From the NCBI GenBank assembly GCA_036794765.1, contig DAIRGB010000001.1, positions 11,752-75,751 on the forward strand: 64,000 bases of DNA, given 5' to 3'. The DNA comes from Patescibacteria group bacterium. GTDB lineage: Bacteria > Patescibacteriota > JAHJAL01. A program made the position numbers and the translations under genes. A model generated the notes under the pieces. It ran no database searches. It was not told where the DNA came from and saw only the letters and a program-made list of their open reading frames with translations. How positions within the stretch are numbered: position 1 is the stretch's first letter; every line of letters begins with the position of its first letter. Of the stretch, positions 46,575 through 64,000 are shown in pieces.

Positions 46575-46847
46575 TTATTTGACGTGAACGATTGTCTTCA
46601 TGCGAAGACTGCCATTGAATCTGGGGAGCTTTTTCTTTTGAAAAGAAACTGTACCATCAGCCATAGCGTAGATAGTATGGTCTTTTCCAAGGGAAACGTT
46701 GTTTCCGGGAAAATAGCGTTTTCCACGTTGGCGGAGGATTATTTCACCTTTGTTGATAGCTTGACCACCAAAAACTTTTACTCCTAGGCGTTTTGATTGA
46801 CTATCTCGCCCTAGACGTGTACTTCCACCGGCTTTTACGTGTGACAT
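46575..46847 (-). CDS. rpmA: 50S ribosomal protein L27.
   Basis: [24 protein letters not shown]. Confidence 0.9.
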
Positions 46848-48022: not shown

Positions 48023-48066
48023 ATCAGATAAAAAAGAAAATTTAATGTTAGAGATTGTGAGATATT

Positions 48067-51000
48067 ATGACCGAATATACAAAAGAAGAATTATTGAGAA
48101 ATTTTTGTCATCTGCATGTGCATTCCCATTATAGCATGTTGGATGGGGTTGGTAAAATAGGTGATATTGTTGCGAGAGCCAAGGAATATGGAATGAAAGC
48201 GATTTCCTTGACTGATCATGGGACAATGTATGGAATTATTGAATTTTACGAGAAAGCTAAAGAAGCGGGCATTAAACCAATTTTGGGATTGGAGGCTTAT
48301 CTGGCTCCTCGGAAGATGACAGATAAAACACCGCGGATTGATAACGATAATAGACATTTGACTTTGTTGGCAAAAAATATTGCTGGATATAAAAATTTGG
48401 TGAGAATTACTTCAGCGGCTCATTTGCATGGATATTATTATAAGCCAAGAGTGGATTATGATTTCTTGGTCGAGCATAGCGAGGGGATTATTTGTCTGTC
48501 CGGTTGTCTTAATGGTCCGGTGGCGAAGGCAATGATAAATAAAAATAAAAGTGGCGCTTTGGAGCATATCACAAAATTAAAAAAAATATTTAATGATGAT
48601 TTTTATCTTGAGTTGCAGTGGCATGCAAATAGCGAGGATCAAAAAATTGCCAATGAGGGTTTGATTGGCTTAGCGAAAGAATTGAATATTCCTTTGGTAG
48701 CTACTGGAGACATTCATTATATTTATCCTGAGGACAATGAAGTGCAGGATGTTTTGGTTTGTATTCAGACTGGGAAGTTGTTGAGTGATAAAGATAGATT
48801 GTCGTTTTTGGACTATAATCTTTCGATGGCTTCTCCGGAAAAAATGTTGGAAGTTTTTTCACATGTGCCCGAAGCTTTGGCTAATACAGGCAAAATTGCA
48901 GATATGTGTAATACCGAGTTGGAGTTGGGTAAATATTTTTTGCCACAAATAGAAAAACCGGAGGGTTTTAAAGATGATTTGGATTATTTGGAGTGGTTGA
49001 CAGTAAAAGGGATGGTAAAGAGATATGGTGATCCAAAATTGGTGGAAAAAGATAATTTTGATCGGGAAAAAGTGTTACAAACTTTGGATCAAAAATATGT
49101 CGAGCGGATGAACTATGAGTTAGGGGCGATCAAGAATATGGGTTTTCCTTCATATTTTTTGATAGTATATGATTTTGTTCAATATGCCAAAAATAATGAT
49201 ATTATGGTTGGTCCTGGACGTGGTTCAGGGGCGGGCAGTATTGTTTTGTATTCATTGGAGATTACGGATTTGTGCCCAATAAAATATGGATTATTGTTTG
49301 AAAGGTTTATTAATCCTGATCGTATTTCAATGCCTGATATTGATTTGGATTTTGCCGATGATAAGCGGGGTGAAGTATTGAAATATGTATGTGAAAAATA
49401 TGGTGAAGATCGGGTGGCACAAATAATCACATTTGGAACCATGAAGGCCAGAGTGGCAGTTAGAGATGTGGGACGAGTAATGGGTTTTAGTTATTCTGAT
49501 GTTGATCGGATTGCCAAGTTGATCGATCCCAAGGGAAAATTAAAACAATCGTTGGAAACGGTTCAAGAGCTGAAAGATATCTATGAAAAAGATGCTGGGG
49601 TAAAAAAGTTGATTGATATGTCAATGAAATTGGAGGGGGTGGCGAGACATTTTGGAATGCATGCTTGCGGGGTAGTTATTTCTCCCGGTCCTTTGACTGA
49701 CTATGTGCCTTTGCAAGAAGCAACAAAAGGTGATACTAAAATGTTGAGTCAGTACAGTTTGCATCCGGTGGAAGTTGTTGGTTTGGTAAAAATGGACTTT
49801 TTGGGTTTGGCCAATTTGACTATTATGAAAAATGCTTTGCGTATTATTAGAAAAGTCTATGATATTGAAGTTAATCTAAATGATATTCCTTTTGATGATA
49901 AAAAAACATATGAGATGTTGGCCCAGGGTTTGTCTACAGGAGTGTTTCAGTTGGAAAGTCAGGGGATGAAAAAATATTTGCGAAAATTGAAGCCTCAGGT
50001 ATTGGATGATGTCATTGCTATGGCAGCTATGTATCGTCCGGGACCTCTCAATAGTGGGATGACGGATGAGTTTATTGATCGCAAAAATGGTTTAAAGAAA
50101 ATCGAATATTTTCATCCAAGTATGGAGAATGCCTTAAAAGATACTTATGGGGTGGTGATTTATCAGGAACAGTGTATGCAGCTTTCAAAAGATATGGCTG
50201 GTTTTACTGGTGGTGAAGCTGATACATTACGTAAGGCCATTGGAAAAAAAATTCCTGAGTTGATGGCCAAGGTTGGCAAGGATTTTATTGATGGATGTGA
50301 GAAAAATGGGATTAGTAAAGATACGGCTCAGAAAGTATTTGATGATATGGCCAAGTTCGCTGAATACGGTTTTAATAAGGCGCATTCAACTTGCTACGGG
50401 GTTATTTCTTATAAGACTGCATATTTGAAAGCGCATTATGCTCCGGCTTATATGGCGGCGGTTTTGACTTCGGAACAGAATAATACTGACCGGTTGACGA
50501 TTGTGATTGAGGAATGCGAGCGCATGGGAATCAAAGTTTTGCCGCCTGACATCAATGAATCATTTGTGGAATTTGGTGTGGTCAAAGAAACAAAAGATGT
50601 GCGTTATGCTTTGGCGGCGATAAAAAATGTGGGAGAGGGAATTTCGGAAGAAATAGTGAAGGAAAGAGGAAAAAATGGTAATTATAAGAATATTGGTGAT
50701 TTGGTGGTACGTACGATGCCACTCGGTTTGAATCGAAAGACTTTAGAAAGTTTGATAAAATCTGGGGCTTTGGATAGGTTCGGAACAAGAGCGGCAATGA
50801 TGAATGCAATTGAGCTGATTTTGAATTTTGGTAGAGATGCTGGCAAAATTAGAGCTTTGGGTCAGACAGATATATTTGCTGCGATGGGTACGGAGGAAAA
50901 AGATGATGTCAAACCGATGGAAATTGATTTTCCAAAACTGGAAGAAGTAAGTAAAAAAGAGTTGTTGGGTTGGGAAAAAGAGTTGATGGGGATGTATTTG

Positions 51001-51603
51001 TCCGATCATCCCTTGGGAGAATACAAGAATTATTTACGAAAGAAGGCTGTTGGTTTGAGAGATTTGAGTTTGGATCAGGAGGGAGAGAAGGTAACGGTAG
51101 GAGGGGTTATAACCAGGATACAGAAAATTATTACCAAAAAAGGTGATGCTATGGCCTTTACAACGATTGAGGACATAGGTGGTATTGTAGAATTGTTAAT
51201 TTTTCCCAAGGTGTTTAGTAAAAATCAGGAATTGTGGAATGAAGGCAATGTGGTTTTGGCTTCCGGAACTATAAGTACGAAAGATAATCAAATTAAGATT
51301 TTGGTGGATAAGGCAGAAGAGATAAATTTGGTTGAGGCTAAAAAGGTTTCGGACGAGGAAGTAGCTGAGATGGAAAAAGAGACGGAGGTTGCCGAATCAA
51401 TTTTTGTAATCAAGATACCGGAAGGCAGCAAGAAGGAGATTTTGGGGCAGTTGAAGGAAATATTAATCGCAAACGAAGGAAAGAATCAGGTAAGACTATC
51501 CTTGTTTGTTCAAAATAAGGAGGTGATTGTGGAGACAGATTTAAAAGTTAGCTTGACTTCTCAATTGAAGAATCAGGTTTACTTATTGTTGAATAATGGT
51601 TAA
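48067..51603 (+). CDS. dnaE: DNA polymerase III alpha subunit.
   Basis: PHP domain HLHVHSHYSMLDG. Palm GPGRGSGAGSIVLYSLEITD. OB-fold at the C-terminus. 1178 aa. Confidence 0.9.
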   Translation: MTEYTKEELLRNFCHLHVHSHYSMLDGVGKIGDIVARAKEYGMKAISLTDHGTMYGIIEFYEKAKEAGIKPILGLEAYLAPRKMTDKTPRIDNDNRHLTLLAKNIAGYKNLVRITSAAHLHGYYYKPRVDYDFLVEHSEGIICLSGCLNGPVAKAMINKNKSGALEHITKLKKIFNDDFYLELQWHANSEDQKIANEGLIGLAKELNIPLVATGDIHYIYPEDNEVQDVLVCIQTGKLLSDKDRLSFLDYNLSMASPEKMLEVFSHVPEALANTGKIADMCNTELELGKYFLPQIEKPEGFKDDLDYLEWLTVKGMVKRYGDPKLVEKDNFDREKVLQTLDQKYVERMNYELGAIKNMGFPSYFLIVYDFVQYAKNNDIMVGPGRGSGAGSIVLYSLEITDLCPIKYGLLFERFINPDRISMPDIDLDFADDKRGEVLKYVCEKYGEDRVAQIITFGTMKARVAVRDVGRVMGFSYSDVDRIAKLIDPKGKLKQSLETVQELKDIYEKDAGVKKLIDMSMKLEGVARHFGMHACGVVISPGPLTDYVPLQEATKGDTKMLSQYSLHPVEVVGLVKMDFLGLANLTIMKNALRIIRKVYDIEVNLNDIPFDDKKTYEMLAQGLSTGVFQLESQGMKKYLRKLKPQVLDDVIAMAAMYRPGPLNSGMTDEFIDRKNGLKKIEYFHPSMENALKDTYGVVIYQEQCMQLSKDMAGFTGGEADTLRKAIGKKIPELMAKVGKDFIDGCEKNGISKDTAQKVFDDMAKFAEYGFNKAHSTCYGVISYKTAYLKAHYAPAYMAAVLTSEQNNTDRLTIVIEECERMGIKVLPPDINESFVEFGVVKETKDVRYALAAIKNVGEGISEEIVKERGKNGNYKNIGDLVVRTMPLGLNRKTLESLIKSGALDRFGTRAAMMNAIELILNFGRDAGKIRALGQTDIFAAMGTEEKDDVKPMEIDFPKLEEVSKKELLGWEKELMGMYLSDHPLGEYKNYLRKKAVGLRDLSLDQEGEKVTVGGVITRIQKIITKKGDAMAFTTIEDIGGIVELLIFPKVFSKNQELWNEGNVVLASGTISTKDNQIKILVDKAEEINLVEAKKVSDEEVAEMEKETEVAESIFVIKIPEGSKKEILGQLKEILIANEGKNQVRLSLFVQNKEVIVETDLKVSLTSQLKNQVYLLLNNG

Positions 51604-51694
51604 ATATTAAGGAAGAAATATCTAAAACATTTGTATTGTAGGTAATTGTGTTATAATATTTAAGCATATAAAATCTTATTGTTGAGAGGAATTT

Positions 51695-52204
51695 ATGGAC
51701 TTAATCGCATATGTTGAAAAGGCTCAATTAAAGAAAAAGATTCCGGCTATTAAACCGGGCTTTATTGTGGCTGTTCATCAGAGAATTAAAGAAGGTAAAA
51801 AAGAAAGAATTCAAGTGTTTAAGGGAATAGTTATTAAAGTAAAGGGTGGGTATGGTTTAAATGCTTCATTTACAGTACGAAGAGTGGCGTCTGGTGTTGG
51901 CGTTGAAAAGACTTTTTTGTTTCATTCTCCAGTGATTGAAAAGATTGTGGTTTTGAAACAAGCGAAAGTACGTCGATCAAAATTGTATTATTTGCGGGGC
52001 CGTTTTGGCAAGAAAGCCAAACTCAATTTAACAGATGAAACCGGTGTTAATGTAGAGGAATTGATTAATGAGATTGCCGGAGAGGAACCAAAAGCAGAAG
52101 TCGTGAGTGACAAGGAACAAGTTGCTGGTGAAGAAAAAAATGAATTAGTTAATGAAGTAAAAGATAATAAGACGGAAAAGAAGGAGAAGAAGGATGTTGA
52201 ATAG
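51695..52204 (+). CDS. rplS: 50S ribosomal protein L19, with a charged C-terminal extension.
   Basis: AIKPGFIVAVHQRIKEGKKERIQVFKGIVIKVKGG...RRVASGVGVEKTF. Confidence 0.85.
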   Translation: MDLIAYVEKAQLKKKIPAIKPGFIVAVHQRIKEGKKERIQVFKGIVIKVKGGYGLNASFTVRRVASGVGVEKTFLFHSPVIEKIVVLKQAKVRRSKLYYLRGRFGKKAKLNLTDETGVNVEELINEIAGEEPKAEVVSDKEQVAGEEKNELVNEVKDNKTEKKEKKDVE

Positions 52205-52373
52205 ATTGTCTGAATTGCCAGGTTTTCTTGTTAGATATGGAAAATCTGTGAGATTAAACTTAATTGATGAAACTACTTTGTGTTCTGGATTATCAGATGA
52301 GGGTATTCTGGTTTTGGATGAAGAGAAAATAATTGATACTGTCGAAAATAAAGAAAATAAAGAAAAGAGATAA
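52194..52373 (+). CDS. Small hypothetical ORF of 59 aa. It is not in the ORF track because it falls below the length cutoff.
   Basis: ATG at 52194 preceded by an AAGGAG ribosome-binding site 8 nt upstream. It overlaps the rplS stop. Confidence 0.3.
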   Translation: MLNRLSELPGFLVRYGKSVRLNLIDETTLCSGLSDEGILVLDEEKIIDTVENKENKEKR

Positions 52374-52402
52374 AGGTTGAGAACGAGAAAGGGTTTAATT
52401 TT

Positions 52403-53011
52403 TTGTTTATGAGTGTTGGCTGGCGGGAAGAGAAGAGATTGTGGTGCGAAGGTTATCGTTATGTTGCCGGTTTGGATGAGGTTGGTTATGGGGCGTGGGC
52501 GGGTCCGGTGGTGGCAGCAGTGGTTGTGTGTAAGGAAAGTAGGTTGATTTACAAATTGGATGATAGTAAAAAACTTAAGATTAAAGATCGGGAGCGTCTG
52601 GCTAAAAAAATATATAGCCGGGCGTTTTTTGTTTCAGTGGGAGAAGCGTCAGTGGAAGAAATTGCTGATTTGGGTTTAGGTGTTGCTCGAGACTTGGCTA
52701 TGATTAGATCTTTAGAGGGTTTGGAAATTGAACCTGATTATCTGATAACCGATGCGGTAAATTTAAAATGGAAGGATAAACCATGTATGGCGGTGATCAA
52801 AGCTGATGCAAAAATTGCTTCAGTGGCTGCAGCTTCTATTGTTGCCAAGGTCCATCGAGATAATTTAATGAAAAGATTGAGCCAGATTTATAAAAGACAT
52901 GGTTTTGCCAAACACAAGGGGTATGGGACGAAATATCATCAGGAAATGATTTTAAAATATGGTTTGACTGGGCAGCATAGGATAAATTATAAATTGAAGT
53001 TTTTAGATTAG
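52403..53011 (+). CDS. rnhB: Ribonuclease HII.
   Basis: GLDEVGYGAWAGPVVAAVV. DDSKKL. Confidence 0.85.
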   Translation: MFMSVGWREEKRLWCEGYRYVAGLDEVGYGAWAGPVVAAVVVCKESRLIYKLDDSKKLKIKDRERLAKKIYSRAFFVSVGEASVEEIADLGLGVARDLAMIRSLEGLEIEPDYLITDAVNLKWKDKPCMAVIKADAKIASVAAASIVAKVHRDNLMKRLSQIYKRHGFAKHKGYGTKYHQEMILKYGLTGQHRINYKLKFLD

Positions 53012-53072
53012 TATTTTATTGAAGAAAAATTTTGTAATCAAATATTTTTCTTTTGGTAATCGAGATTTAAAT

Positions 53073-53468
53073 ATGGGGAATCAAACTGCAAAACAAATTT
53101 TAGGGAAATGGGGGGAGGAGCAGGCGAGGAAATTTTTGGAAGAAAAGGGTTTCAAGTGGATGGAAAGTAATTTCAAGTATAAAAAAGGGGAAATTGATTT
53201 GGTTATGAAAAACGGGGACGATTTGATCTTTGTTGAAGTAAAAACGAAAGTGGATGATTATTCCGGCGATCCGGCAGACAATGTGGACCGAAAGAAGATT
53301 CAGCAAATAGAGTGGGTGGTGGGATATATTTTGCAAAATATTCTGTTGAAAAATAATTGGGGATTTGATGATGAAGTAAGGTGGCAGATTGATATCGTTG
53401 CAGTTTATGGTGATGGAAGGCAGGTTTTTGATATAATGCATTATGAAAATGTTACGTTTTGGGAATAG
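53073..53468 (+). CDS. yraN: YraN (UPF0102) family endonuclease. The ORF track starts at a TTG at 53019. The ATG at 53073 is preferred.
   Basis: GEEQARKFLEEKGFKWMESNFKYKKGEIDLVM...FVEVKT. Confidence 0.7.
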   Translation: MGNQTAKQILGKWGEEQARKFLEEKGFKWMESNFKYKKGEIDLVMKNGDDLIFVEVKTKVDDYSGDPADNVDRKKIQQIEWVVGYILQNILLKNNWGFDDEVRWQIDIVAVYGDGRQVFDIMHYENVTFWE

Positions 53469-53562
53469 ATGCTATTGCTCAATTAATCGGTCTATTATTG
53501 TGTCATTGAAACATTGAAAATTTATTGCAAGTTATAAATTATAAATTGAAAATTAGTTTTTT

Positions 53563-54999
53563 ATGAATAAACAAATTGTAACCAGATTTGCACCCAGTCC
53601 GACCGGTTTTTTACATATTGGCAGTTTGCGTTCCGTTCTTTATACATATTTGGAAACCAGACGATTGGGTGGGAAGTATATTTTACGTATTGAAGATACT
53701 GATCGTAGTCGATTTGTCGCTGGAGCTATTGAAGACATGCGTGGAGTTTTGGATTGGTTTGGGATCGAATTTGATGAGAGTCCGTTTGTTGGTGGTCCCA
53801 ATGGTCCGTATATTCAGTCGGAAAGAATTGATGTTTATAAAAAATATGCTGAGGAGTTGGTAAAAAAAGGTTGGGCATATTATTGTTTTTGTACGGCTGA
53901 GGAATTGAAAAATGAGAAAGAATCTGGCTTGACGATGTATAGTCGTAAATGTAGTTCTCTTACTCCTGAGGAAATAAAAAGAAAAATTGATGAAGGCCTT
54001 TCATATGTGATTAGGTTGAGAGTGCCAAAAGGAAGAATGGTAGATTATGAAGATAAAATTTTAGGTTTTTTGAAGTTTGAATCGGATATGATTGATGATC
54101 AAGTTTTATTAAAATCAGATGGTTATCCTACTTATCATTTGGCGGTAGTTGTGGATGATCATTTGATGGGAGTAAATCTGGTGACACGGGCGATGGAGTG
54201 GGTATCGTCAACTCCCAAGCAAATTTTGTTGTATGAGGCTTTTGGTTGGGATTCGCCTGATTTTGCTCATTTACCACCTGTTTTGGGAAAAGATAAAAAG
54301 AAGAAATTGGGAAAACGAGATGGAGATACGGCAGTGACTGATTATATTAAAAAAGGTTATTTGAAAGAGGCCTTGATTAATTATTTAGTGATTTCCGGTT
54401 GGCATCCCAAGGACAATCGAGAAATTTTTTCTCTGGAAGAATTGAAAAATGAATTTTCGTTGGATCGATTGAATAAAGTGGGTAGTGCTTTTGATATTGA
54501 TAAATTGAATTGGTTTAATAAAGAATATTTAAAGAGACTTGATACCGATGAGATTTTGGAGAGATTAAAAGATGTAGTCTTGGATGATAGGATTTTGAGT
54601 TTGGATAAAGAATATTTGAAAAAGATTGTTCAAGTTGAAAAAACTAGATTAAACAATTTGTCAGAGTTAAATAATATGGGAGAATATTATTTTTCGGAAC
54701 CGAAAATTGATAAGGAAAATTTAGTTTTTAAGAAGAGTACAAAGGAAACAACAAAATTGGGTTTGGAAAAAGTGGTTGAGAAAATTTCTGGTTGTGAAAA
54801 TTGGGAGTCAGAGGAATTAAATAGATTGATGCAGGAAGTGGTGAAAGAAAATAATCTAACCAATGGTGATGTTTTTTGGCCAGTTCGTTATGCCTTGACT
54901 GGCGAGATGCAAAGTGCTTCTCCGGTGGAACTGGCTTGGGTGTTGGGGAGGGGAGAGAGCTTAAAAAGGTTACAAAATGTTATAATGTTTTTTAAATGA
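53563..54999 (+). CDS. gltX: Glutamate--tRNA ligase.
   Basis: RFAPSPTGFLHIGSLRS (HIGH motif). KLGKRDG (KMSKS-like motif). The size is typical. Confidence 0.85.
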   Translation: MNKQIVTRFAPSPTGFLHIGSLRSVLYTYLETRRLGGKYILRIEDTDRSRFVAGAIEDMRGVLDWFGIEFDESPFVGGPNGPYIQSERIDVYKKYAEELVKKGWAYYCFCTAEELKNEKESGLTMYSRKCSSLTPEEIKRKIDEGLSYVIRLRVPKGRMVDYEDKILGFLKFESDMIDDQVLLKSDGYPTYHLAVVVDDHLMGVNLVTRAMEWVSSTPKQILLYEAFGWDSPDFAHLPPVLGKDKKKKLGKRDGDTAVTDYIKKGYLKEALINYLVISGWHPKDNREIFSLEELKNEFSLDRLNKVGSAFDIDKLNWFNKEYLKRLDTDEILERLKDVVLDDRILSLDKEYLKKIVQVEKTRLNNLSELNNMGEYYFSEPKIDKENLVFKKSTKETTKLGLEKVVEKISGCENWESEELNRLMQEVVKENNLTNGDVFWPVRYALTGEMQSASPVELAWVLGRGESLKRLQNVIMFFK

Positions 55000-55074
55000 A
55001 CAATTAACAATGAATAGAGACATTTTTTCTGTAAATTATTAATTTTCTTTGTTAATTGTTTATTTTGTGTGTGT

Positions 55075-55145
55075 TCCGGGATCGTCTAATGGTAGGACAG
55101 CGGCCTCTGAAGTCGTCAATCTTGGTTCGAATCCAAGTCCCGGAG
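55075..55145 (+). tRNA. tRNA-Gln with anticodon CTG.
   Basis: Acceptor stem TCCGGGA pairs with TCCCGGA. Anticodon loop CTCTGAA. T-arm CTTGGTTCGAATCCAAG. Discriminator G. Confidence 0.75.
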
Positions 55146-56726
55146 TTTTCCTGAACGAAGCATCTTGTGTGAATGGCTATTGACCATATTGGTGCTTGAT
55201 GTCACCTGTTCGAATTTGTTTTTGGTATTTTCGGATAAAATTTCTATATTCGAATTTCGGAGTATATTGGTTAGCTTGGCTAACATTTCAAATGGTTTAG
55301 ATAGCTTTACAGATAGAATTCCGTTTTCAATTTTCATTTCATCAAAGAGGACTTTAAGTAGTTCTCTTTTGTTGTCTGGTAATCCATTTTCAAATATTAT
55401 ATTTGCCTGTTGAGTCAATTCATAAATTGAAATGCCAAGCTCGTAATAAGCATTTTCTTTTCTGGTTAGTCTATCAATGGCTCTGGAAATGTCTTCTTTT
55501 TCTTTCGTGAATTTTTGGTTTAATTCTTTGTAAGTATTATCAGAAATAAGACCATCTAATTTGTCTATGTATAAAGTGTCTAGTCTTTGAGAAAGTTTAC
55601 TGTATTGGATGTGAAGTTGTTTGGCTGATGCCTCCCTAGTGACTATTTCTTCTTTGTGGTCTTCTTTTAATGACATTCTAATCCATTCATCAATTTTAGG
55701 ACTGGTTATTTTGAATCTATCGGTAATATCTGAGACTTGTTCTTCGATTTCGGCTTGTTTTGCCCATGTTTTTTGTTGGCAATTATTTTTGTGATTGCAG
55801 TGACCATATACTATCCCTTTTTGGATTTCCCAAGTAATGGTCCCATTGCATTCTTTGCAGGTCATTAATTTTTGGAAGACATAATGGTGTTTATTGTATT
55901 TTGGAGTTGTTTTGGAAGTAAGGTTTAGTTGGACTTTTTCAAATACTTCTTCTGTGACAATTGGCTCATGTTTTCCAGGATATATTTCATTTTTCCAAAG
56001 GATTTTTCCACTATAGAATGGTCTGGTAAGGATATTATGAAGCGTGCTTTTTGCCATTCTTTTACCTTTAATTGTTCTGAGTCCTTGTTTAAACATGATT
56101 TGACTTAGTTTCTTTAAAGAGTAATTTCCTGTCGCATACAGTTCAAATAACTGTTTGATTAGAGGTGCAATATTTTCATCAATAACTTGGATTTTGTGAC
56201 CTTTTTCTCCTATAGTCTTGTATCCCATTGGTGCTTTATTTGGTAGCCAGCCTTGAGATATTTTTTCTTTAAAACCTTTTTGCACTTCTTCGGACAAATT
56301 ATTGGTGTAAAATCGGGCAATGGCGACTTTCATGTCCCAAACTAGATTTTCGTGTGCTTTGGTATTTTTATTGAGAACAAAAGATTCTTTGACAAAATGG
56401 ACCTCGTGTTTGGGATTGCTTTGGACCCAGTCATTGATAATTGCTGCGTCTTTAAGGTTTCTGGTTAGTCTGTCTATCTTTTCGCATACTATAACTGAAA
56501 TTTGGTTTTGTTTTAGATATTTTAGCATTTCTTGAAAGGTGTCTCGGATTTTTTTGCCACTGGCTGATTCAGAAATACTGAATATTTTGTTTATTCGGAA
56601 TTTATTTTGAGAATAGTCTTTTAATAGTTTTTCTTGAGCTGGCAAGGAATAACCTGTTTCTTCTTGGTCCTTAGATGACACTCGGCAATATAAGACGGAT
56701 TTTGGCATATTGTTGATAGTTTTCAT
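55116..56726 (-). CDS. Large serine recombinase (phage-integrase type).
   Basis: Resolvase catalytic domain VLYCRVSSKDQ...VIVCEKIDRLTRN. Recombinase domain. Zinc ribbon CKECNGT...CNHKNNC. C-terminal coiled coil. The 3' end overlaps tRNA-Gln. Confidence 0.8.
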   Translation of the reverse strand: MKTINNMPKSVLYCRVSSKDQEETGYSLPAQEKLLKDYSQNKFRINKIFSISESASGKKIRDTFQEMLKYLKQNQISVIVCEKIDRLTRNLKDAAIINDWVQSNPKHEVHFVKESFVLNKNTKAHENLVWDMKVAIARFYTNNLSEEVQKGFKEKISQGWLPNKAPMGYKTIGEKGHKIQVIDENIAPLIKQLFELYATGNYSLKKLSQIMFKQGLRTIKGKRMAKSTLHNILTRPFYSGKILWKNEIYPGKHEPIVTEEVFEKVQLNLTSKTTPKYNKHHYVFQKLMTCKECNGTITWEIQKGIVYGHCNHKNNCQQKTWAKQAEIEEQVSDITDRFKITSPKIDEWIRMSLKEDHKEEIVTREASAKQLHIQYSKLSQRLDTLYIDKLDGLISDNTYKELNQKFTKEKEDISRAIDRLTRKENAYYELGISIYELTQQANIIFENGLPDNKRELLKVLFDEMKIENGILSVKLSKPFEMLAKLTNILRNSNIEILSENTKNKFEQVTSSTNMVNSHSHKMLRSGKLRDLDSNQD

Positions 56727-56743
56727 TTTAAATGCTCCTAGAA

Positions 56744-57127
56744 TTAATAAAATAAAGAATTATTGTATTTAGTATGTATTTTTATTTTTGGATATTTTTT
56801 AAGGCAATTATTCAATATATGGGTGTCATAGCGGTTGCGTGTTAATCGAGATATATCTGAGCATAGCAGATGATTAATATTTAATTTATTCATTGTTTGG
56901 AATAATTCTGGAATTATTTTATCTTTTGGCAAGCCTGTAAATTTTAAAGAAGAGACAATTTGAAATTTTTGACCTAAATAATCAATTAAATTCTTTTCTT
57001 GAAGGGATAGTTTTTGTAGATTATCATTTTGTTTATGACAGGCGGAAAACGAGAAACAAATTGCTTGGTTATTCATAATGGTGTTTATTAGATAAATAAA
57101 AAAGGGGCAACCTACCTTGTTGCCCAA
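56744..57127 (-). pseudogene. Degenerate or truncated serine recombinase N-terminal domain fragment.
   Basis: 127-aa ORF with LLCSDISRLTRN, which matches the resolvase DRLxR motif. It lacks the RVS-type catalytic Ser context. Confidence 0.35.
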
Positions 57128-57341
57128 TCAATTAAACCACTAGAAGAGGATTAATTGTGGAAGTAGATTGCCCCGTTTTTGTCCACAAAGAACATAAAAG
57201 ACGAGTTCTCTTCCATGGTTTAATTAATTGATTGAGCAACACTTATATTGTATCAAGTAAAATGCAGGTGATACAATGTTGTTGTGATTCGAGTGTGGCA
57301 AAATTTCTTATCTATAATAGAACGAAATTTTTGCGACACTC

Positions 57342-58352
57342 TTATTTGTGTTCAGGCGCAGGATATTCTTCTGTAAATCGAGGGTGAGTATAGTCTAGTT
57401 CTGGGTAGAGGCAGTTTTTTTCTCCTCTGGTTTCGATAATAATTTTTTCGGAGATTAACTCCTTGTAGGCAGTATTGAAGGTTTTTTCTCCAATATCATA
57501 TCCGTATTCTTTGATTTTGCCGTAAAGTTGGGTTTTGTTCATTTTTTCAGTGTTTTTCTGGAGAATTTCGACGATTGCATTTTTAGAATCAATTTTTTTG
57601 CTGGTCTTGATTTCGTTGTAGCCAGCAAATTCAAAGTCTAGAAAATCCTCATTATTTTTTATTAGCAGTTTGAAACTATTAAGCTCTTGCTGTTGTCTGA
57701 GTTTAGTTTGTTCAATCTCTAAACTGTCTTCGACTTTCGTTACAGCCAAGTGACAATCTATGGATGCTAGAATATCGGATGAACCTCGCATGTTTTGGGA
57801 GTTGGAGGATTTATTGTGCATATTCTGTTTGCGATGGTGGTGGGTCACTATAACAGTGATACCATGTTTCGTCATTTTCTTTAGATAAGCAAATACCTCG
57901 GCCATCTTTTTTGCATCGTTTTCATCGGCGTTGTGTATTCTTACCAATGAATCGAAGATGACTACTTTGTAATCGTTTTCCAAACAATACTCGATTAAGG
58001 TTTGGCATACATTTTCTATTTTTATACCAAGTATTGAAGTGACGGATATTGGTAGTTCAGGGGATGTCTGTAGTTTGACGAATCTATCATGGAGCAGTCT
58101 TTCACCATTTTCTTCGTCTATAATTAGGATTTTGGATTGTGCGGTGCGAAATTGTCCAAAGACAATGTCTCCAATTGCTATTTTTTTGGCCATGTATAAG
58201 AATAGCCATGTTTTAAAACAACTCGGTTGGCCGGAGATAACTGTAATGCCATTAGTTGGTATTAGGTATTCTACAACCCAATTTAATGGTGGGAATTCCT
58301 TGGTTAATAGCTCTTTTAATGGAATAACGTGCTTGCTAAAAATGTTTGTCAT
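57342..58352 (-). CDS. RecA-fold ATPase (RepA/AAA_25-like) with a C-terminal winged-helix domain. It is a candidate replication protein of the element.
   Basis: Deviant Walker A SGQPSCFKT. Walker B KVVIFDSLVRIH. Conserved TVIVTHHHRK. Confidence 0.5.
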   Translation of the reverse strand: MTNIFSKHVIPLKELLTKEFPPLNWVVEYLIPTNGITVISGQPSCFKTWLFLYMAKKIAIGDIVFGQFRTAQSKILIIDEENGERLLHDRFVKLQTSPELPISVTSILGIKIENVCQTLIEYCLENDYKVVIFDSLVRIHNADENDAKKMAEVFAYLKKMTKHGITVIVTHHHRKQNMHNKSSNSQNMRGSSDILASIDCHLAVTKVEDSLEIEQTKLRQQQELNSFKLLIKNNEDFLDFEFAGYNEIKTSKKIDSKNAIVEILQKNTEKMNKTQLYGKIKEYGYDIGEKTFNTAYKELISEKIIIETRGEKNCLYPELDYTHPRFTEEYPAPEHK

Positions 58353-58766
58353 GATAACTCCTATAATTAAAATAAAATATTAGATATTTGGATACATTGA
58401 CGATTATTTAGGGAGGTCCTTTGCATCGATGGTCTTTTGTTTGTTGGTTATACATATTGAGTAAAATGCTTGAAGTTTTTATTAAAAAATCGGCAAGAAT
58501 TTTTGTATCTTCCAATGATAGCTTTTGGTTGTATTCTTCTTCTATGATTTTTTGGAGATTGAGAATGGTTTGTTCGGAGAGCATTTTTTTGCAATAAAAA
58601 ATAATACTAGCCTAAAGACTAGACTAGTATCAAAATCTAAGGAATTTAATTCGTGAAAACTCTAGAAAGTTCCAGAAATTTCCATCTTTTTTAATTTTTT
58701 CAACCATAAAAAAACTCTCATTTGTAATATCGAATGAGAGTAGTTATCTAGTTTTTTCTAATTTTT

Positions 58767-59339
58767 TTACACTTGTATAATTTCTGCTTTATTATTTTTT
58801 TCCATTATTGATATTTTTAGCGGAATTTTTGCTGATATAGCTCGTGTTAAATTTTTTAAACCTTTAATGATTGATTTGTCATCTTCAGTTTTATGGTTGT
58901 CTAAAAAAGCATTTTTTACATATTGTTTCATTTTGTCTAAGTGAAAATGGAATTTATATGGTCTTGAAGCTGTTTTTGATTGATTGTAAATATATTCTAA
59001 TATTATTGAGTTGATTTCTTTATAAGGTCTATACTCTGTTTTTGAAAACTTTATACTATTTTTGTATATTATTACGTTTTCTTTTTTGTTGGATTTATTT
59101 GATTTGCCTGAATTTGTAAGTGGTTTGAATATTACATAGTTTTCCGTAAGTTTTTTTATATGTATTTTGTTAATGTTTTGAAGATAATCGATAATTTTAC
59201 GTTGTGTTCCTCTAGTCATGATAATATTGTCTCCTCCATCTGATAAGGTGATGAAGTTATAAGTAACATATCCCTCTTTGTTTGGTAATAATTCATTGAT
59301 TATTTTATTTACTACATTGAGTTCCCATTTAGTTATCAT
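58767..59339 (-). CDS. Hypothetical protein belonging to the element.
   Basis: 190-aa ORF. K/N-rich. Confidence 0.4.
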   Translation of the reverse strand: MITKWELNVVNKIINELLPNKEGYVTYNFITLSDGGDNIIMTRGTQRKIIDYLQNINKIHIKKLTENYVIFKPLTNSGKSNKSNKKENVIIYKNSIKFSKTEYRPYKEINSIILEYIYNQSKTASRPYKFHFHLDKMKQYVKNAFLDNHKTEDDKSIIKGLKNLTRAISAKIPLKISIMEKNNKAEIIQV

Positions 59340-59402
59340 ATTGGTTTAAAAATTATTATTGCTTTATTTATTAATTATGTTCTGATACGGTCAAAGTAAT
59401 AG

Positions 59403-59987
59403 ATGTCTAATAATTATTATATGAGAAAAAGTATTTATAACAAAAAAGTAGTGATGGCTTATCTGAACGAAGATTTTGATTTATTTGGAGAATATCTGGA
59501 AAAAAGGGACCCAGTGGCTTTGGTCCTTGATGCAATAGAGAAGGGTAATTTTAATCGAGATGCGGCAAGACTAGCCAATATATCAGAATCTGAGTTTTAT
59601 CTTTGGCAACAGGAGAAAATTTCTTTAAATAAAGTTAATCCATACTATAAATTGGAATTTTCGGAGTCGGTTTCCAGGGCTAAAGCAAGAAGAATCAATT
59701 TTCATTTGACTAAAATAAGAGAAGCGAGTGATAAAGATTGGCGAGCCAGTGCTTGGATGTTGGAAAAGATAGAACCAAAAATATATGGTAAAAATACGCA
59801 AATTGGTTTTAACTTTCAACCTCCTCGTATTACAATTGCTACTCAGGAAATTCCAGAGAGGACTGAAGAACAAAAGGAAAAAGATAAAGTGTATGCATCT
59901 GGTTCTGAGGATGTCCAAAAATTTAAAGAAGTAATGGAGGAAATTAAGAGAGATTTGGAAGAAAAGGAGAATCAGGATTATTCCTAA
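59403..59987 (+). CDS. Hypothetical protein with an N-terminal HTH-like segment. It could be a terminase small subunit or a regulator.
   Basis: RDAARLANISESEFYLWQ helix-turn-helix-like. Charged C-terminus. Confidence 0.4.
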   Translation: MSNNYYMRKSIYNKKVVMAYLNEDFDLFGEYLEKRDPVALVLDAIEKGNFNRDAARLANISESEFYLWQQEKISLNKVNPYYKLEFSESVSRAKARRINFHLTKIREASDKDWRASAWMLEKIEPKIYGKNTQIGFNFQPPRITIATQEIPERTEEQKEKDKVYASGSEDVQKFKEVMEEIKRDLEEKENQDYS

Positions 59988-60253
59988 GTGGTGAAATATT
60001 TGATAAATTTTGCTAATATAAAGCCGTAAGTAACAATTCAAGTGCCTAAACTTTGTATTTTATACAAGGCATGGCAGTAAAAACTCAGATACATAAAGAT
60101 GGTCCTTTTGACCAGCTTACTTGTATCTGAGTATATATCCGAAAGGATATATGGTGGACCCGAAAGGGAAAGCCGAGCTGTGTTGGAAGGACCGTTTTTG
60201 GAATGATTTCAACATAGCAGAATAATTTTCTGTTTATTTTTTAAATATATGGT

Positions 60254-60865
60254 GTGACTATGAAAAATTTCTTCAACAAATACACGATTATTGTCGGTGC
60301 TATTTGCTTGGTAGTTGGTTTTTCTTTTGGGGCGGGCGGTTATTATCTGCTTTTGCCTTACAGAACACTAAAAATTACTTCCAATGTTCCAATTCCTGGA
60401 TTGGATTTGATGACGGATACGGCAAAAGAGATATCAAATATTGTTAAACCCGTAGTAGAGAAGAAAATAGGTGAGGATTTTATGTTGGATGATAATATCA
60501 AAGTCACTTACAAATGGACCAAGGAAGAAACAAATCGACTAAGTGACGAAAATAGTTATTTTGGCTATGACCCAAAAGAAGGAATGAAATGGGTAATTTT
60601 GGCTTTTGATGCCGAGAATATTGGAAAAAAAGCTGTAAGTTTAGATATAAACAAAAATAAAGATTTTGTATTATTTGATGAAAATGACAGAGAATATGAG
60701 TCTGATTATGGATATTCTCTTGATAATTATCTTTTTAATTATCAGCTTGTTCCTGCGTTGAAATCTGAAAAAATAGTTGTCTTTTCTGTTCCCAAAGATA
60801 CAAACAAATTCAAATACATTATCTACCATGGAAAGAATGAAGATTATAAATTGATTTTGGGATAA
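60254..60865 (+). CDS. Exported protein with an N-terminal transmembrane or signal anchor and a beta-rich domain (DUF4352-like).
   Basis: Hydrophobic N-terminus IIVGAICLVVGFSFGAGG. Beta-strand-rich remainder. Confidence 0.45.
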   Translation: MTMKNFFNKYTIIVGAICLVVGFSFGAGGYYLLLPYRTLKITSNVPIPGLDLMTDTAKEISNIVKPVVEKKIGEDFMLDDNIKVTYKWTKEETNRLSDENSYFGYDPKEGMKWVILAFDAENIGKKAVSLDINKNKDFVLFDENDREYESDYGYSLDNYLFNYQLVPALKSEKIVVFSVPKDTNKFKYIIYHGKNEDYKLILG

Positions 60866-60880
60866 TACTAAGCAAACACT

Positions 60881-61324
60881 ATGAAAAAATGTCGTTATTG
60901 CATGGAAGAAGTTCAAGATGAAGCAATTAAGTGCAAATATTGTCAAAAAAGCTTATTACCTGAAGGTGTGGCAATTACTGTAATTTCCGATAATGAAAAA
61001 CAAATTGCACGAAGTATTGCAGATTATCTTACTATATCAGGTATTGTTTGGCTTATTATTGGAGCCTTACAAATTGTCGGATTAGTTACTATTATTGCAG
61101 GTATTTGGAATATTATTGTGGCAATATCTCGGTTAAATGCTTCAACTAGGGTATCGAATTTCGATAAAAATATACCAAGGCAATTTGAGAGTATGAGCGG
61201 ATTGATTATTGTTTTGATAGTTAATCTATTCTTGGGCGGAATAATAGGAGTAATTGTCGTTATTTTTGACTTTATTATTCGAGATAAGATTTTATCCAAT
61301 CGTCATATTTTTGAAAGAGATTAA
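60881..61324 (+). CDS. Zinc-ribbon membrane protein.
   Basis: CRYC...CKYC ribbon followed by two or three transmembrane helices. Confidence 0.5.
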   Translation: MKKCRYCMEEVQDEAIKCKYCQKSLLPEGVAITVISDNEKQIARSIADYLTISGIVWLIIGALQIVGLVTIIAGIWNIIVAISRLNASTRVSNFDKNIPRQFESMSGLIIVLIVNLFLGGIIGVIVVIFDFIIRDKILSNRHIFERD

Positions 61325-61332
61325 ATATTTTT

Positions 61333-61626
61333 ATGGATAAATGTCCATTTTGTGCTGAACAAATACAATCAGGTGCTATTTATTGTCATCACTGTAAATC
61401 AGATTTAAAAAAACCTGAGGAAAGAAAAGTATATCGGGATATACAACAGAATAATTCTAATAATTCCTGTTTATGGATAGGTGGAGGAGGATGTTGTTGC
61501 TTATTAGTCGTAATTATTTCAGTATTTATGTTTATGTTCTTTCTGAATGGAATATTTTTAATGGGTAATGCAGCAGTAAAAAATTCAAATCAAACATCTG
61601 TTACAACTATTACACCCAACCCATAA
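61333..61626 (+). CDS. Zinc-ribbon membrane protein, a paralog of the upstream gene.
   Basis: CPFC...CHHC ribbon followed by a Gly/Cys-rich transmembrane helix. Confidence 0.5.
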   Translation: MDKCPFCAEQIQSGAIYCHHCKSDLKKPEERKVYRDIQQNNSNNSCLWIGGGGCCCLLVVIISVFMFMFFLNGIFLMGNAAVKNSNQTSVTTITPNP

Positions 61627-61800
61627 CGACCCGTGAGGTGAATTATTTTATGTGGACTTGATAAAGTCGCCCGAATTACGCGCGAAATTTTTTTTGGGTT
61701 AATAAAATCTTAAGAACAGAAGTGGTAAAATAAAGATGTTTATAAACAAGCGGTATATTTTTCAGAAATAATATTTAAGATATTTATTGATTAAAACAAG

Positions 61801-63486
61801 ATGGCAAAAAAAGATTATACAAACTGGGACAGAAAAGACTTAATTAAAGAGATTGAGCAACTTCGCAAACGCAAGAAATATGGGCTTGTTTGGGAAGAAA
61901 AGCCGGAAAATGTTGTTGAGCAATGCAAAACCGAATTACCAGTTTTAGAAGAAGTCAAAGACAAAGAAATAATTACCGATCCCGACAAACCAGTAAATTT
62001 ATTGATTGAGGGCGACAATTATCATGCTCTTTCTGTCTTGAATTACACTCACAAAGGTAAAATTGATGTTATTTATATTGATCCGCCATATAACACAGGG
62101 GCAAGAGATTGGAAATATAACAATGATTATGTTGATATAAATGATCAGTGGAGACATAGCAAATGGTTATCGTTCATGGAAAAAAGATTAAAGCTTGCCA
62201 AAAATCTGCTCAAAAAAAATGGTGTTTTAATTTGTACGATTGATAAAAATGAGCAAGCTAATCTCGGGGTTTTGTTGCAAGAAATTTTTAATGGAAAAGA
62301 AATAGTATGTGTTACGATCATCCATAATCCTGGCGGTATTCAAGGTAAAAACTTTTCTCATACAAACGAATTTGCTTATTTTATTCATCCTCAAAATGGT
62401 AATTTTATATCAACTATTGCTAGAGATGATGTACCACCGACAGCTTTTCGAGATTGGGGAAAAGAAAGTTCAAAAAGAGAAGCGGCGAAAACTTGTTTTT
62501 ATCCAATTTTAATTAAAGACGAATCTATAGTTGGATTTGGAGGAGTTTCTTTAGATGATTTTCACCCAAAAGGCTCAAACATATTACGAAAAGACGGAAT
62601 TATTGAGGTTTACCCCGTTGATCAAAAAGGCGTTGAACGAAAATGGCGTTTTGGTCGAGAAACCGTTGAGGATATTAAGGAAGAGCTGATTTGCAAAAAG
62701 GTAAAAGGTAAATATTCAATATTCAGAGAGAAAAAAGATTATCGATGGAAAACTGTTTGGACTGAAACAAAATACAATGCAAATGTATATGGAACAAAAT
62801 TACTTAACAATATTATTGAAGCAAAATTTCCTTATCCCAAATCATTATATGCAGTAATGGATTGCGTAAAGGCAGTTATACACGATAAACAAAATTCAAT
62901 AGTGTTAGATTTTTTTGCTGGATCTGGTACGACAGGTCACGCTGTTTTAGAACTTAACAAAACAGATAACGGAAATCGAAAATTTATTTTGTGTACAAAC
63001 AATGAAGACAACAACGGCGAAGGAACAAAAATAGCAGACGACATGTGCTATCCAAGAATAGAAAAAGTAATAAATGGCTATAAAGGTTTGCTAGACGGGA
63101 AAAAATACCAAGGCTTAAATGGAAATTTAAAATACTTTCGCACAACATTTGTATTTGCAGACCCAACAGATAAAAACAAAATTGCTCTAACCGAAAAAGC
63201 AATGGAAATGCTTTGTGTAAAAGAGGATACTTTTGGAGAAGTAAAATCAACAAAGCAATACAAGATTTTCAGAAACAAGAAGCGATATACTGGCATTGTT
63301 TTTGATCATCAAGCGATAAATGATTTTAAAAAAGAAATTGCTAAGATTGACGGCAAATTCAGTCTTTATATTTTCTCGCTTGGCGACGATACTTTTGATG
63401 AGGAGTTTGAAGATATGAAGAAGAAAGTAAAATTATCACCCATACCAGAGGCGATACTTCGAGTTTATCGCAGAATATTTAAATAA
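61801..63486 (+). CDS. mod: Type III restriction-modification Mod subunit, a beta-class N6-adenine or N4-cytosine DNA methyltransferase.
   Basis: Motif IV IDVIYIDPPYNTG precedes motif I DFFAGSGTTGHAV. Confidence 0.75.
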   Translation: MAKKDYTNWDRKDLIKEIEQLRKRKKYGLVWEEKPENVVEQCKTELPVLEEVKDKEIITDPDKPVNLLIEGDNYHALSVLNYTHKGKIDVIYIDPPYNTGARDWKYNNDYVDINDQWRHSKWLSFMEKRLKLAKNLLKKNGVLICTIDKNEQANLGVLLQEIFNGKEIVCVTIIHNPGGIQGKNFSHTNEFAYFIHPQNGNFISTIARDDVPPTAFRDWGKESSKREAAKTCFYPILIKDESIVGFGGVSLDDFHPKGSNILRKDGIIEVYPVDQKGVERKWRFGRETVEDIKEELICKKVKGKYSIFREKKDYRWKTVWTETKYNANVYGTKLLNNIIEAKFPYPKSLYAVMDCVKAVIHDKQNSIVLDFFAGSGTTGHAVLELNKTDNGNRKFILCTNNEDNNGEGTKIADDMCYPRIEKVINGYKGLLDGKKYQGLNGNLKYFRTTFVFADPTDKNKIALTEKAMEMLCVKEDTFGEVKSTKQYKIFRNKKRYTGIVFDHQAINDFKKEIAKIDGKFSLYIFSLGDDTFDEEFEDMKKKVKLSPIPEAILRVYRRIFK

Positions 63487-63497
63487 TTGGAAAAACT

Positions 63498-64000
63498 ATG
63501 CAACTAAAAGATTATCAAAATACGGCTATAAAAAAACTTCTCACCAGAAGCAAGGAATTGTTGGCTCAAAGTGGCGAGAAGAAAGTTAATTTTAAAGCTC
63601 CGACTGGATCAGGTAAAACCATAATGACAGCGGAATTTTTGAAGCAACTTATTGATGATAAGGAAATCAAAACCCCACTTTCGTTTATTTGGACTGCTCC
63701 TCGAAAACTACACAAGCAAAGCAAGGAAAAACTAGAAAAGTATTATGAGGATACAAGGGCTTTGGAATGTTCCGACTTTGAAGACTTGACCGACAAGCAG
63801 ATCGGGGAAAACGAAATTTTGTTTTTGAATTGGGAAAGCATAAACAAGAAAGATAAAAACACGATTGTTAAAGAAAACGAAAAGGAATTTTATCTCGGCA
63901 AAATTGTTGAGAACACGAAAGAAGAAGGGCGGGAAATTGTTTTAATAATTGATGAAAGCCACCACCACGCCACCAGCAAAATTTCTCAAGACTTAATTTC
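63498..64000 (+). CDS. res: Type III restriction enzyme Res subunit (SF2 helicase-like). Partial; it continues past the window end.
   Basis: Walker A KAPTGSGKT. DEAH-like IDESHH. Confidence 0.7.
   Translation, partial: MQLKDYQNTAIKKLLTRSKELLAQSGEKKVNFKAPTGSGKTIMTAEFLKQLIDDKEIKTPLSFIWTAPRKLHKQSKEKLEKYYEDTRALECSDFEDLTDKQIGENEILFLNWESINKKDKNTIVKENEKEFYLGKIVENTKEEGREIVLIIDESHHHATSKISQDLI

Follow-up and report, generated by a model that had tools for sequence, protein, structure and literature searches.

The window analyzed here, 64,000 nucleotides of contig DAIRGB010000001.1, comes from a bacterium of the candidate phyla radiation (CPR), or Patescibacteria, in agreement with an earlier note made on this DNA from its sequence alone. 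Toward its right end, the window carries a host gene for tRNA-Gln(CTG). From the opposite strand, the gene for a 536-residue large serine recombinase (LSR), or integrase, runs into the 3' end of this tRNA gene, and an island that differs from the host part in composition begins there and continues to the end of the window (Table 1).

The tRNA-Gln junction and its large serine recombinase

Within the tRNA gene, the T-loop (TTCGAAT, 55126-55132) is followed by the 3' strand of the acceptor stem (55138-55144) and the discriminator (G55145); CCA is not encoded, and a TTTT run comes directly after the discriminator. The LSR open reading frame (ORF), the only long one opposite tRNA-Gln, ends inside the tRNA gene with a TGA stop codon (the reverse complement of 55116-55118), so that the two genes overlap by 30 to 31 nt; the earlier note had put this overlap at about 30 nt. 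As judged from the comparisons with relatives described below, the tRNA DNA that supplies the last nine codons and the stop (55116-55143) belongs to the host, and the protein ends here in a tail encoded antisense to the tRNA (...LRDLDSNQD).

The recombinase matched the Pfam families Resolvase (PF00239; E = 1.9e-24) and Recombinase (PF07508; E = 1.9e-16), as well as PHROG 95, annotated as integrase (E = 3e-75). The PF13408 match was below threshold in this protein, yet it was recorded for many homologues. In an alignment of 26 sequences (the LSR and 25 homologues), residues R15, S17, D85, R86, and R89 were invariant, as were the zinc-ribbon cysteines C290, C293, C310, and C316. An AlphaFold2 model (mean predicted local distance difference test score [pLDDT], 76) contained a catalytic domain, an alpha-E helix, a recombinase domain, a zinc ribbon, and a coiled coil, with strands 288-310 and 461-475 flanking a long helical hairpin (358-447). 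Over its full length, this model was matched by Foldseek to serine integrase-att complexes (9dxd, 9y66, and 9dxh; E of about 1e-19) and further to 9rah, the PhiC31 integrase, and the LI integrase-attP complex 4kis; at the sequence level, solved structures were matched in the catalytic domain only (TP901-1, 3bvp). Both marks of a large serine recombinase were thus found, namely the resolvase-type catalytic domain with its Ser and Arg and the recombinase, zinc-ribbon, and coiled-coil parts. The window protein is clearly an intact large serine recombinase with all domains, and its assignment to the phiC31/Bxb1 type with zinc ribbon and coiled coil in the earlier note was borne out by Pfam, AlphaFold2, and Foldseek alike. 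Translation may in fact begin at the second ATG (MPKSVLY...), 18 nt (6 codons) from the start of the ORF.

A related locus without the island was found in JBMORM010000007.1 (L003), a species-representative Patescibacteria metagenome-assembled genome (MAG) whose GltX is 93% identical to that of the window. L003 was collinear with window positions 43904-55149 at 87 to 89% DNA identity, and the match ended at 55149. The two tRNA-Gln genes differed at one position, in the T-loop (A55131 in the window versus G in L003); the four T's after the discriminator were identical, and total divergence followed. Beyond its tRNA, L003 encodes an HD hydrolase, a Ca/Na antiporter, a peptide deformylase, a nuclease-fold protein, and transporters, and no recombinase was found among these downstream genes. 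Since L003 is collinear up to 55149 and then continues with unrelated housekeeping genes, the sequence comparison identifies it as an empty site. Related genomes thus differ in the presence of an element, and the break coincides with the att site; element lineages also occur in unrelated host contexts (see below).

Composition changed at the same point. GC content fell from about 0.36 to about 0.31 at 55 kb, and GC skew fell from about 0.4 over 1-55000 to 0.12-0.26 over 55001-64000; the shift persisted across the plus-strand island genes. The skew of the host part (1-55000) was uniform and very strong, about +0.4 on the plus strand, and it makes the island stand out. The island is clearly foreign DNA and an integrated element, left-bounded by tRNA-Gln. 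The earlier note had proposed this and had named, among the ways to examine it, a comparison with relatives lacking the insertion and a search for a change in GC skew, and each of these gave a positive result. It had staked its reading on the existence of an empty allele and on a true overlap of the LSR C terminus with the tRNA, and both exist.

The arrangement seen in the window recurred in two samples, as two ENA contigs retrieved by exact look-up of the LSR and GltX, both ending inside the island. One of them, NODE_912 (ERZ724098; L002), stops within the LSR gene (12562-12607) in an Illumina adapter, AGATCGGAAGAGC, which is an assembly artefact and not a structural variant.

Table 1. Features at and beyond the tRNA-Gln gene, in window coordinates
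Feature	Position	Strand	Basis
tRNA-Gln(CTG), host	55075-55145	+	Rfam RF00005, 60.3 bits; ARAGORN 55074-55146
attL, B arm and common core	55125-55149		End of synteny with L003; crossover placed from relatives
LSR (integrase), 536 aa	55116-56726	-	Pfam Resolvase and Recombinase; PHROG 95; AlphaFold2/Foldseek
Conserved inverted repeat	55208-55254		TTCGAA at 55209-55214 (motif B) and 55249-55254 (motif A)
Remnant of a resolvase N-terminal domain, degenerate (127 aa)	56744-57127	-	Pfam Resolvase, E = 0.004 (below curated cut-off)
AAA_25/RepA-DnaB-like RecA-fold ATPase	57342-58352	-	Pfam AAA_25, E = 2e-25; PHROG primase/helicase families
Two small hypothetical proteins, 58 aa and 190 aa	58408-59339	-	No family matches (Pfam, PHROG)
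Helix-turn-helix (HTH) protein, terminase-small-subunit-like, 194 aa	59403-59987	+	PHROG 4102, E = 5.5e-14; no Pfam match
DUF4352 protein and two zinc-ribbon membrane paralogues (cargo)	60254-61626	+	Pfam DUF4352, E = 4e-8; weak zinc-ribbon matches
Type III restriction-modification (RM) cassette	61801-64000	+	Mod 61801-63486; Res N terminus from 63498, cut by window end

Crossover position and attachment sites in the LSR family

More than 1600 homologues of the LSR were found at E < 1e-20, none closer than 56%; the few that carried a name were assigned to Minisyncoccia or Parcubacteria. Eighty metagenome loci encoding such homologues (L numbers) are the basis of the counts for the family. At 41 of the 80 loci, a convergent tRNA gene was overlapped by 13 to 63 nt of the LSR 3' end (tRNA-Asn(GTT) at 29 loci, tRNA-Gln at 9, tRNA-Ser at 2, and tRNA-Arg at 1), and a partial tRNA was present at one further locus. 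Five more loci (L029, L033, L047, L048, and L071) had a group I intron right after the LSR stop (Rfam RF00028; 69 to 89 bits), and because these introns lie in the target tRNAs, the tRNAs had been missed by ARAGORN. Many contigs broke at or near their target tRNAs. At two tRNA-Gln loci, L042 and L055, housekeeping genes (FtsX/FtsE/PrfB and Era) lay beyond the tRNA, and primase-type, zinc-ribbon, and RM genes lay behind the LSR. Taken together, the synteny break, the composition shift, and the recurrence of the geometry at 41 of 80 loci put the junction in the window beyond chance.

The C termini of the homologues read ...LLRG(x)DSN(L/Q)(Q/R)P.. or stopped at ..LLRG, and the codons of DSN (GAT TCG AAC) are the reverse complement of the T-loop. 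In most relatives (L014-L092), the LSR tail also contains the peptide K-N-R-A-F-D-P, whose DNA forms a GC hairpin followed by a T-run on the other strand, 10 to 40 nt 3' of the tRNA; by its sequence, this hairpin is a putative intrinsic terminator that the element provides to the tRNA.

The position of the crossover was read from closely related elements. In one lineage (L059, L061, L078, L079, and L065), the LSR genes were 88 to 92% identical, and the upstream 3 kb were 79 to 89% identical where aligned among the first four, with L065 sharing little. Beyond the junction, only the tRNA matched (76 to 88%), and the host flanks were unrelated. The tRNAs of this lineage differed from the first acceptor positions on, and the adjoining 75 nt of the integrase tail were near-identical. 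Since the lineages diverge at the acceptor end, the overlapped tRNA (about 28 nt within the ORF) is host DNA. Moreover, the LSRs of L042 (tRNA-Gln) and L068 (tRNA-Asn) were 88% identical, indicating that one lineage uses both tRNAs. L066 and L070 carry an element of the L059 type (92% identical) without a tRNA, and there the homology stopped 2 nt past the discriminator. These alignments place the crossover at tRNA positions 71-73, the extreme 3' end. Dyad symmetry around the tRNA end was moderate across the family (0.5 to 0.8 at 8 to 12 bp for a centre at 71|72) and is supporting only.

Ten homologues without a tRNA had a longer tail, ...WDDFRTLKW...PELIIKQVKELLQ*. In one of these, L045, the core CTC is followed by CGCGG-ATGGGA-CGCGT-TTCGAAC, and the tRNA junction of L060 reads CGCGG-GCAGGA-CTCGAACC, with an acceptor-like inner part and a T-loop hexamer as in L045. 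Counted from the core, the hexamer index was 20 in all ten long tails and in five far-end junctions (L019, L034, L063, L073, and L081) versus 15 in all tRNA junctions, i.e., exactly 5 nt nearer. With the centre at 71|72, TTCGAAC lies at +13 to +19 in the tRNA and at +18 to +24 in the sequence that mimics it. Rutherford et al. placed the motif of the zinc-ribbon domain at 16-24 in the half-sites of attP and at 11-19 in those of attB, and this 5-bp shift is the basis of directionality in serine integrases (PMC3783163). On the strength of the same 5-bp shift, the long-tail form was read as attP, with the integrase tail as the putative P' arm and the tRNA mimic as the putative P arm, and the tRNA junction was read as attL. 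All attP, attL, and attR sites had just a short core in common, (TG)CTC, which corresponds to tRNA G71-A72-G73(-C-A) on the opposite strand.

Free and complete forms were found among the relatives. L039, a long-tail locus, had a 123-bp terminal overlap and is therefore a circular contig of about 7.9 kb. In L063, L081, L034, and L019, the P-arm mimic was present upstream of LSRs that abut a tRNA, in the right orientation and after the core and unrelated DNA, so that both junctions, attL and attR, were found; the two share the (TG)CTC core within each locus, and the complete elements measure about 6.3, 8.4, 8.5, and 10.5 kb. At the left junction of the element of about 10.5 kb (L019, 1026-1190), a 68-nt copy of the LSR tail (91% identical) stands before the core and P arm and completes an attP-like site that is intact but has no integrase body in front of it; this element may have integrated beside the scar of an older one. 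A separate case is L028 (11400-13129), an attP-type LSR tail in a 147-kb contig, with a convergent tyrosine integrase gene 520 nt away and a gene for archaeal-type EF-1alpha next to it; this may be a nested element, and its host is possibly not bacterial.

For the window element, the crossover centre inferred from these relatives, and not from the window element itself, is 55143|55144. The B arm of the predicted attL, GTTCGAA (55125-55131), lies 13 to 19 bp from this centre, which is the attB-type spacing, and the common core GAGTTTT (55143-55149) is present both in the window and in the empty site. A crossover at the extreme 3' end of the tRNA accounts for the lack of a tRNA repeat: no second copy of the tRNA 3' 20-mer was present in the window at up to 3 mismatches or in a gapped version, and none was found within 10 kb upstream of the LSR in the 41 relatives. 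The earlier note had likewise seen no repeat in the window and had proposed a search for one farther on as the way to attR; since the far junction of the relatives is the 5-bp-shifted mimic, such a search could never have found it. No P-arm mimic was present up to 64000 either, so the window element must exceed 8.9 kb, with its right end beyond the window, as the earlier note had supposed. Searches for this right end outside the window gave nothing: the Mod protein was absent by exact look-up, the HD protein of L003 led to nothing closer than 55%, and the Res N terminus retrieved only other genomes carrying the RM cassette. The P arm of L066/L070, used as a probe for far junctions, had no matches.

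We therefore consider it probable that the DNA from 55144 to beyond 64000 is a mobile element inserted by its own LSR at the extreme 3' end of tRNA-Gln. Its free form would be a small circle, as the 7.9-kb circle of L039 is, with an attP that falls within the integrase gene, at its 3' end. The integrase tail would form the inner P' arm, and the outer P arm would mimic the acceptor stem and T-arm of the tRNA, with TTCGAAC 18 to 24 bp from the crossover. Both arms are seen in the relatives and are assumed here. The integrase would read the T-arm of the tRNA as an attB half-site (motif 13 to 19 bp from 71|72) and exchange strands at G71-A72-G73. The tRNA would be left intact, with at most the discriminator and trailer replaced. 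Integration would swap the last 25 to 35 residues of the integrase (...WDDFRTLKW...PELIIKQVKELLQ) for the antisense-tRNA tail, and the P-arm mimic would land in attR at the far junction, expected beyond the window in this case.

A second conserved feature lies in the 3' coding region of the LSR gene. Two motifs, A and B, form an inverted repeat 40 bp apart (centre 55231|55232, 88 bp from the inferred crossover), with the consensus GTTCGAAAnT-N30-AnTTTCGAAC, and the repeat was seen in loci L014-L093. It is conserved at the DNA level: the F-E codons of the repeat are TTC-GAA in 41 of 41 homologues versus a background of 33% TTC and 66% GAA, the codon after F-E always starts with C irrespective of the amino acid, and the codon before motif A varies (Ser, Gly, Arg, or Cys) yet keeps GT as its last two bases. 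In the AlphaFold2 model, the region corresponds to an LSR tail with a pLDDT below 50. The arms are complementary only at 15 to 24 bp from the centre, an attP-type geometry, around a central dinucleotide that is not palindromic. Integrated, attP-type, and circular forms all have an intact repeat, and it is therefore not here that recombination with the tRNA takes place; the inner sequence of the repeat and its central dinucleotide are also unlike the tRNA site, and the repeat was ruled out as the real attP. From its sequence, it might serve as an accessory binding site or as a multimer-resolution site. That the 66-nt tail might be a second, degenerate tRNA or a small RNA was likewise ruled out, since Rfam finds the tRNA alone and the tail has no resemblance to a tRNA 5' part. 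The hexamer TTCGAA is depleted three-fold in the window (10 copies versus 32 +/- 5 expected from shuffles), which suggests avoidance of a BstBI-type restriction site, and 3 of the 10 copies cluster at the tRNA and LSR tail.

A broader proposal joins these observations, and we hold it only tentatively: the acceptor stem and T-arm of the tRNA may be a natural attB half-site matched by a mimic attP arm, attP may lie in the element's own integrase gene so that the tail swap possibly switches activity or directionality, and the never-recombined inverted repeat, about 60 to 90 bp from the crossover, may be an accessory integrase-binding site. Accessory sites of this kind are not known for large serine integrases.

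Island genes and alternative explanations

Next to the LSR gene lies the resolvase N-terminal remnant that the earlier note had described. Its identity to LSR N termini was 25 to 32% (tblastn), its catalytic-motif region is not conserved, and no relative has an ORF of this kind immediately upstream of an intact LSR. The ATPase that follows has the deviant Walker A motif GQPSCFKT, and the reading of it as a replication-type enzyme agreed with its Pfam and PHROG matches. An ATPase 37% identical to it occupies the same place relative to the LSR in L087, L088, and L090, and the L087 homologue has a Walker A of the same deviant type, GTPGSYKS. This ATPase is a probable replication module, and from it the island would probably replicate autonomously after excision. 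In L061 and L078, weak homologues of the 58-aa protein lie upstream of the LSR at a distance of about 2 kb. The K/N-rich hypothetical proteins and the two zinc-ribbon membrane proteins noted earlier are present as described, and both membrane paralogues matched PHROG 8436.

The Type III RM pair stood only in part. Mod was recognized by PADLOC (MTase_III; E = 8e-72), and Res was seen as the 167 N-terminal residues of a helicase, with the rest, including the nuclease domain, outside the window; its translation and its homologues carry ResIII/DEAD domains (superfamily 2 helicase). Nearly all of the 120 best homologues of the Res N terminus are just 126 to 290 aa long, which points either to a tendency of contigs to break there or to a gene that is frequently split. 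The cassette was 78 to 82% DNA-identical to cassettes in other metagenomic genomes (L097 and L098; one of them a Patescibacteria MAG, 78%), and this identity begins exactly at the mod ATG, upstream of which the DNA differs; its GC skew remains island-like. Complete relatives are small and without virion genes, and they encode either a CHC2 primase-type zinc-finger protein with an HTH protein of about 450 aa or an AAA_25 ATPase, together with small ORFs. Their defence cargo consists of Type IIG or Type III RM, AbiU2-HEPN, and HEPN/DUF4145. By its content, the window island would carry defence and accessory cargo (Type III RM and membrane proteins), like the relatives with RM, AbiU2, and HEPN genes.

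Away from the island, a stretch directly after tRNA-Asp (32835-32910) has low GC content (0.26 to 0.31) and low skew (32911-35430). It holds two hypothetical ORFs (33323-33796, minus strand; 34332-35408, plus strand) and no integrase; perhaps it represents another small islet, or a remnant, beside a tRNA.

Several points weigh against reading the island as a mobile element inserted by its LSR. All results are computational. The att anatomy was read from relatives whose LSRs are 44 to 54% identical to that of the window, and the empty site stems from a different species-level genome (87 to 89% DNA identity) and not from the same population. No attR was found in the window up to 64000 by exact, mismatch-tolerant, or gapped search, and the size, attR, and present mobility of the window element are unproven. 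The tail of the window element has neither the terminator hairpin of most relatives, which is absent from 55146-55200, nor their TG-CTC core context (the core here is AAAACTC). No recombination directionality factor (RDF) was identified, RDFs being too diverse for recognition by sequence; the ORFs at 58408-59339 and the HTH protein are candidates only. Attachment sites of the attP type also occur as tails in chromosome-sized contigs (L028, 147 kb), so "attP-type" is not always "free." Finally, the resolvase fragment beside the LSR hints at past decay.

This last point bears on the possibility, which we regard as unlikely, that the island is a fixed, immobile remnant, left by an old integration whose far junction was lost and whose LSR is a relic or has been co-opted. 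The degenerate fragment adjoining the LSR, the absence of attR within 8.9 kb, and the recurrence of the same arrangement in two samples would fit such a history, as would the RM cassette, which is a separately mobile module and possibly a later addition. However, the LSR ORF is intact, with the catalytic Ser and Arg and the four zinc-ribbon Cys conserved and a confident model; the composition of the island has not been ameliorated; the closest sequenced relative lacks the island; and among the relatives are a circular form and elements in which both junctions are present.

About as improbable is a prophage or phage satellite packaged by a phage or helper phage through a protein like the terminase small subunit (TerS). 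The match of the 194-aa HTH protein to a terminase small subunit family and a weak Terminase_2-like ORF adjoining the LSR in the circular L039 are in its favor, and integrase, replication ATPase, and terS together are the module set of phage-inducible chromosomal islands (PICI) and PICI-like tycheposons (10.1101/2020.12.28.424599). Nevertheless, neither the 8.9 kb seen nor the complete relatives were found to encode capsid, portal, large terminase, tail, or lysis functions, and the N-terminal HTH folds of TerS proteins resemble those of excisionases and regulators too. Moreover, among 2.9 million IMG/VR contigs, just 3 (weak loci) code for a protein related to the LSR, and no phage record is more than 30% identical to it; a viral origin was set aside on these grounds.

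Least likely by a clear step is the classic rebuilding of the tRNA proposed in the earlier note with a repeat of the tRNA 3' end as attR, which would imply a crossover in the anticodon or T-loop, the last 30 nt or so of the tRNA supplied by the element, and the host 3' half displaced to the far end as a direct repeat: the constant DSN frame across the T-loop and the T-loop difference at A55131 had suggested a crossover there with an element-borne acceptor strand, and this is the mode of most tyrosine-integrase islands (PMC7192596), but LSR tails about 90% identical abut tRNAs that differ right from position 70-71, the far junctions of relatives are the 5-bp-expanded mimic and not a tRNA fragment, no tRNA repeat occurs within 10 kb at 41 loci, a fixed crossover position explains the constant frame equally well, and a 2-bp overlap suffices for a serine integrase.

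Relation to known systems and significance

The domain order of the window LSR (catalytic domain, alpha-E, recombinase domain, and zinc ribbon with embedded coiled coil) is that of the phiC31, Bxb1, A118/LI, SPbeta, TP901-1, and CcrAB recombinases, to which it is only distantly related (30% identity or less to phage integrases). Its relatives also share with the large serine integrases of phages and integrative and conjugative elements (ICEs) the short att sites, the tiny core, and the attP motif 5 bp further out. The clade differs from these enzymes in its target, the 3' end of a tRNA and not a protein-coding gene; in the location of attP in the integrase gene, so that integration would alter the C terminus of the enzyme; and in the tRNA-mimic attP arm, the extra attP-like inverted repeat, and the Patescibacteria host.

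Islands inserted at tRNAs by tyrosine integrases (Islander-type; P4, Staphylococcus aureus pathogenicity island, and ICE types) resemble the window element in having a tRNA-proximal integrase, a functional tRNA, and defence or accessory cargo. In contrast, the LSR elements use another recombinase family and leave neither a displaced tRNA 3' fragment nor a long direct repeat; the displaced fragment that serves as the Islander hallmark was absent from the window and from 10 kb in 41 relatives. The crossover falls at 71-73 in the LSR elements versus the anticodon or T-loop in the tyrosine-integrase islands. Mageeney et al. (2020) found tRNA or transfer-messenger RNA genes used by 44.5% of tyrosine integrases versus 4.9% (14/297) of serine integrases, described the latter as "not known for targeting tRNA genes," and called for experimental proof (PMC7192596). 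A literature search for serine integrases with tRNA targets in CPR bacteria found nothing.

By architecture, the best analogue of the window element would be the tycheposons of Prochlorococcus (Hackl et al.), which are likewise small, tRNA-integrating elements of streamlined genomes. They combine a site-specific integrase and a primase/helicase replication module with either cargo or a PICI-like terS. The integrase, own replication module, and cargo of the window element at a tRNA match this scheme in architecture only, its recombinase lying outside the tyrosine recombinase clade of the tycheposons. Unlike the LSR elements, tycheposons are flanked by partial tRNAs and have cyanobacterial hosts; 910 of 937 use tyrosine recombinases, and the few LSR cases came without a mechanistic description (10.1101/2020.12.28.424599). 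The small serine recombinases of the phiRSM type integrate at the 3' end of a tRNA gene, as the LSR clade does (cited in PMC7192596), but they are resolvase-like, lack the recombinase, zinc-ribbon, and coiled-coil domains, and belong to filamentous Ralstonia phages.

The LSR clade also has a parallel in systems in which integration alters the product of the gene containing attP. These include the SSV-type archaeal integrases and the integration-dependent immunity of mycobacteriophages BPs and Brujita, all of them tyrosine-integrase systems, in which the gene is split (SSV) or the repressor loses a degradation tag. In the LSR clade, only the last 25 to 35 integrase residues would be swapped, and any regulatory effect is hypothetical.

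The clade is large and appears undescribed, and its targeting of tRNA ends, its tRNA-mimic attP arm inside the integrase gene, and the swap of the integrase C terminus appear to be new. Large DNA cargo is inserted into genomes mainly with serine integrases, whose natural targets have been thought to be almost always protein-coding genes; their use of tRNAs, in 4.9% of islands, has so far been described as rare and unproven (PMC7192596). An entire clade (more than 1600 homologues, with most inspected loci abutting a tRNA) appears here to be directed at the part of tRNA genes that is most conserved. Its att logic can be read from sequence, by way of the tRNA mimic and the 5-bp shift, and would thus yield testable attP/attB pairs for many new integrases whose landing pad, the 3' end of a tRNA, is present in every organism. 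The question is also raised of whether the change of the integrase C terminus upon integration helps to control directionality. For the CPR bacteria, in which mobile elements have barely been described, these findings would show for the first time, in mechanistic terms, how small elements with defence genes move.

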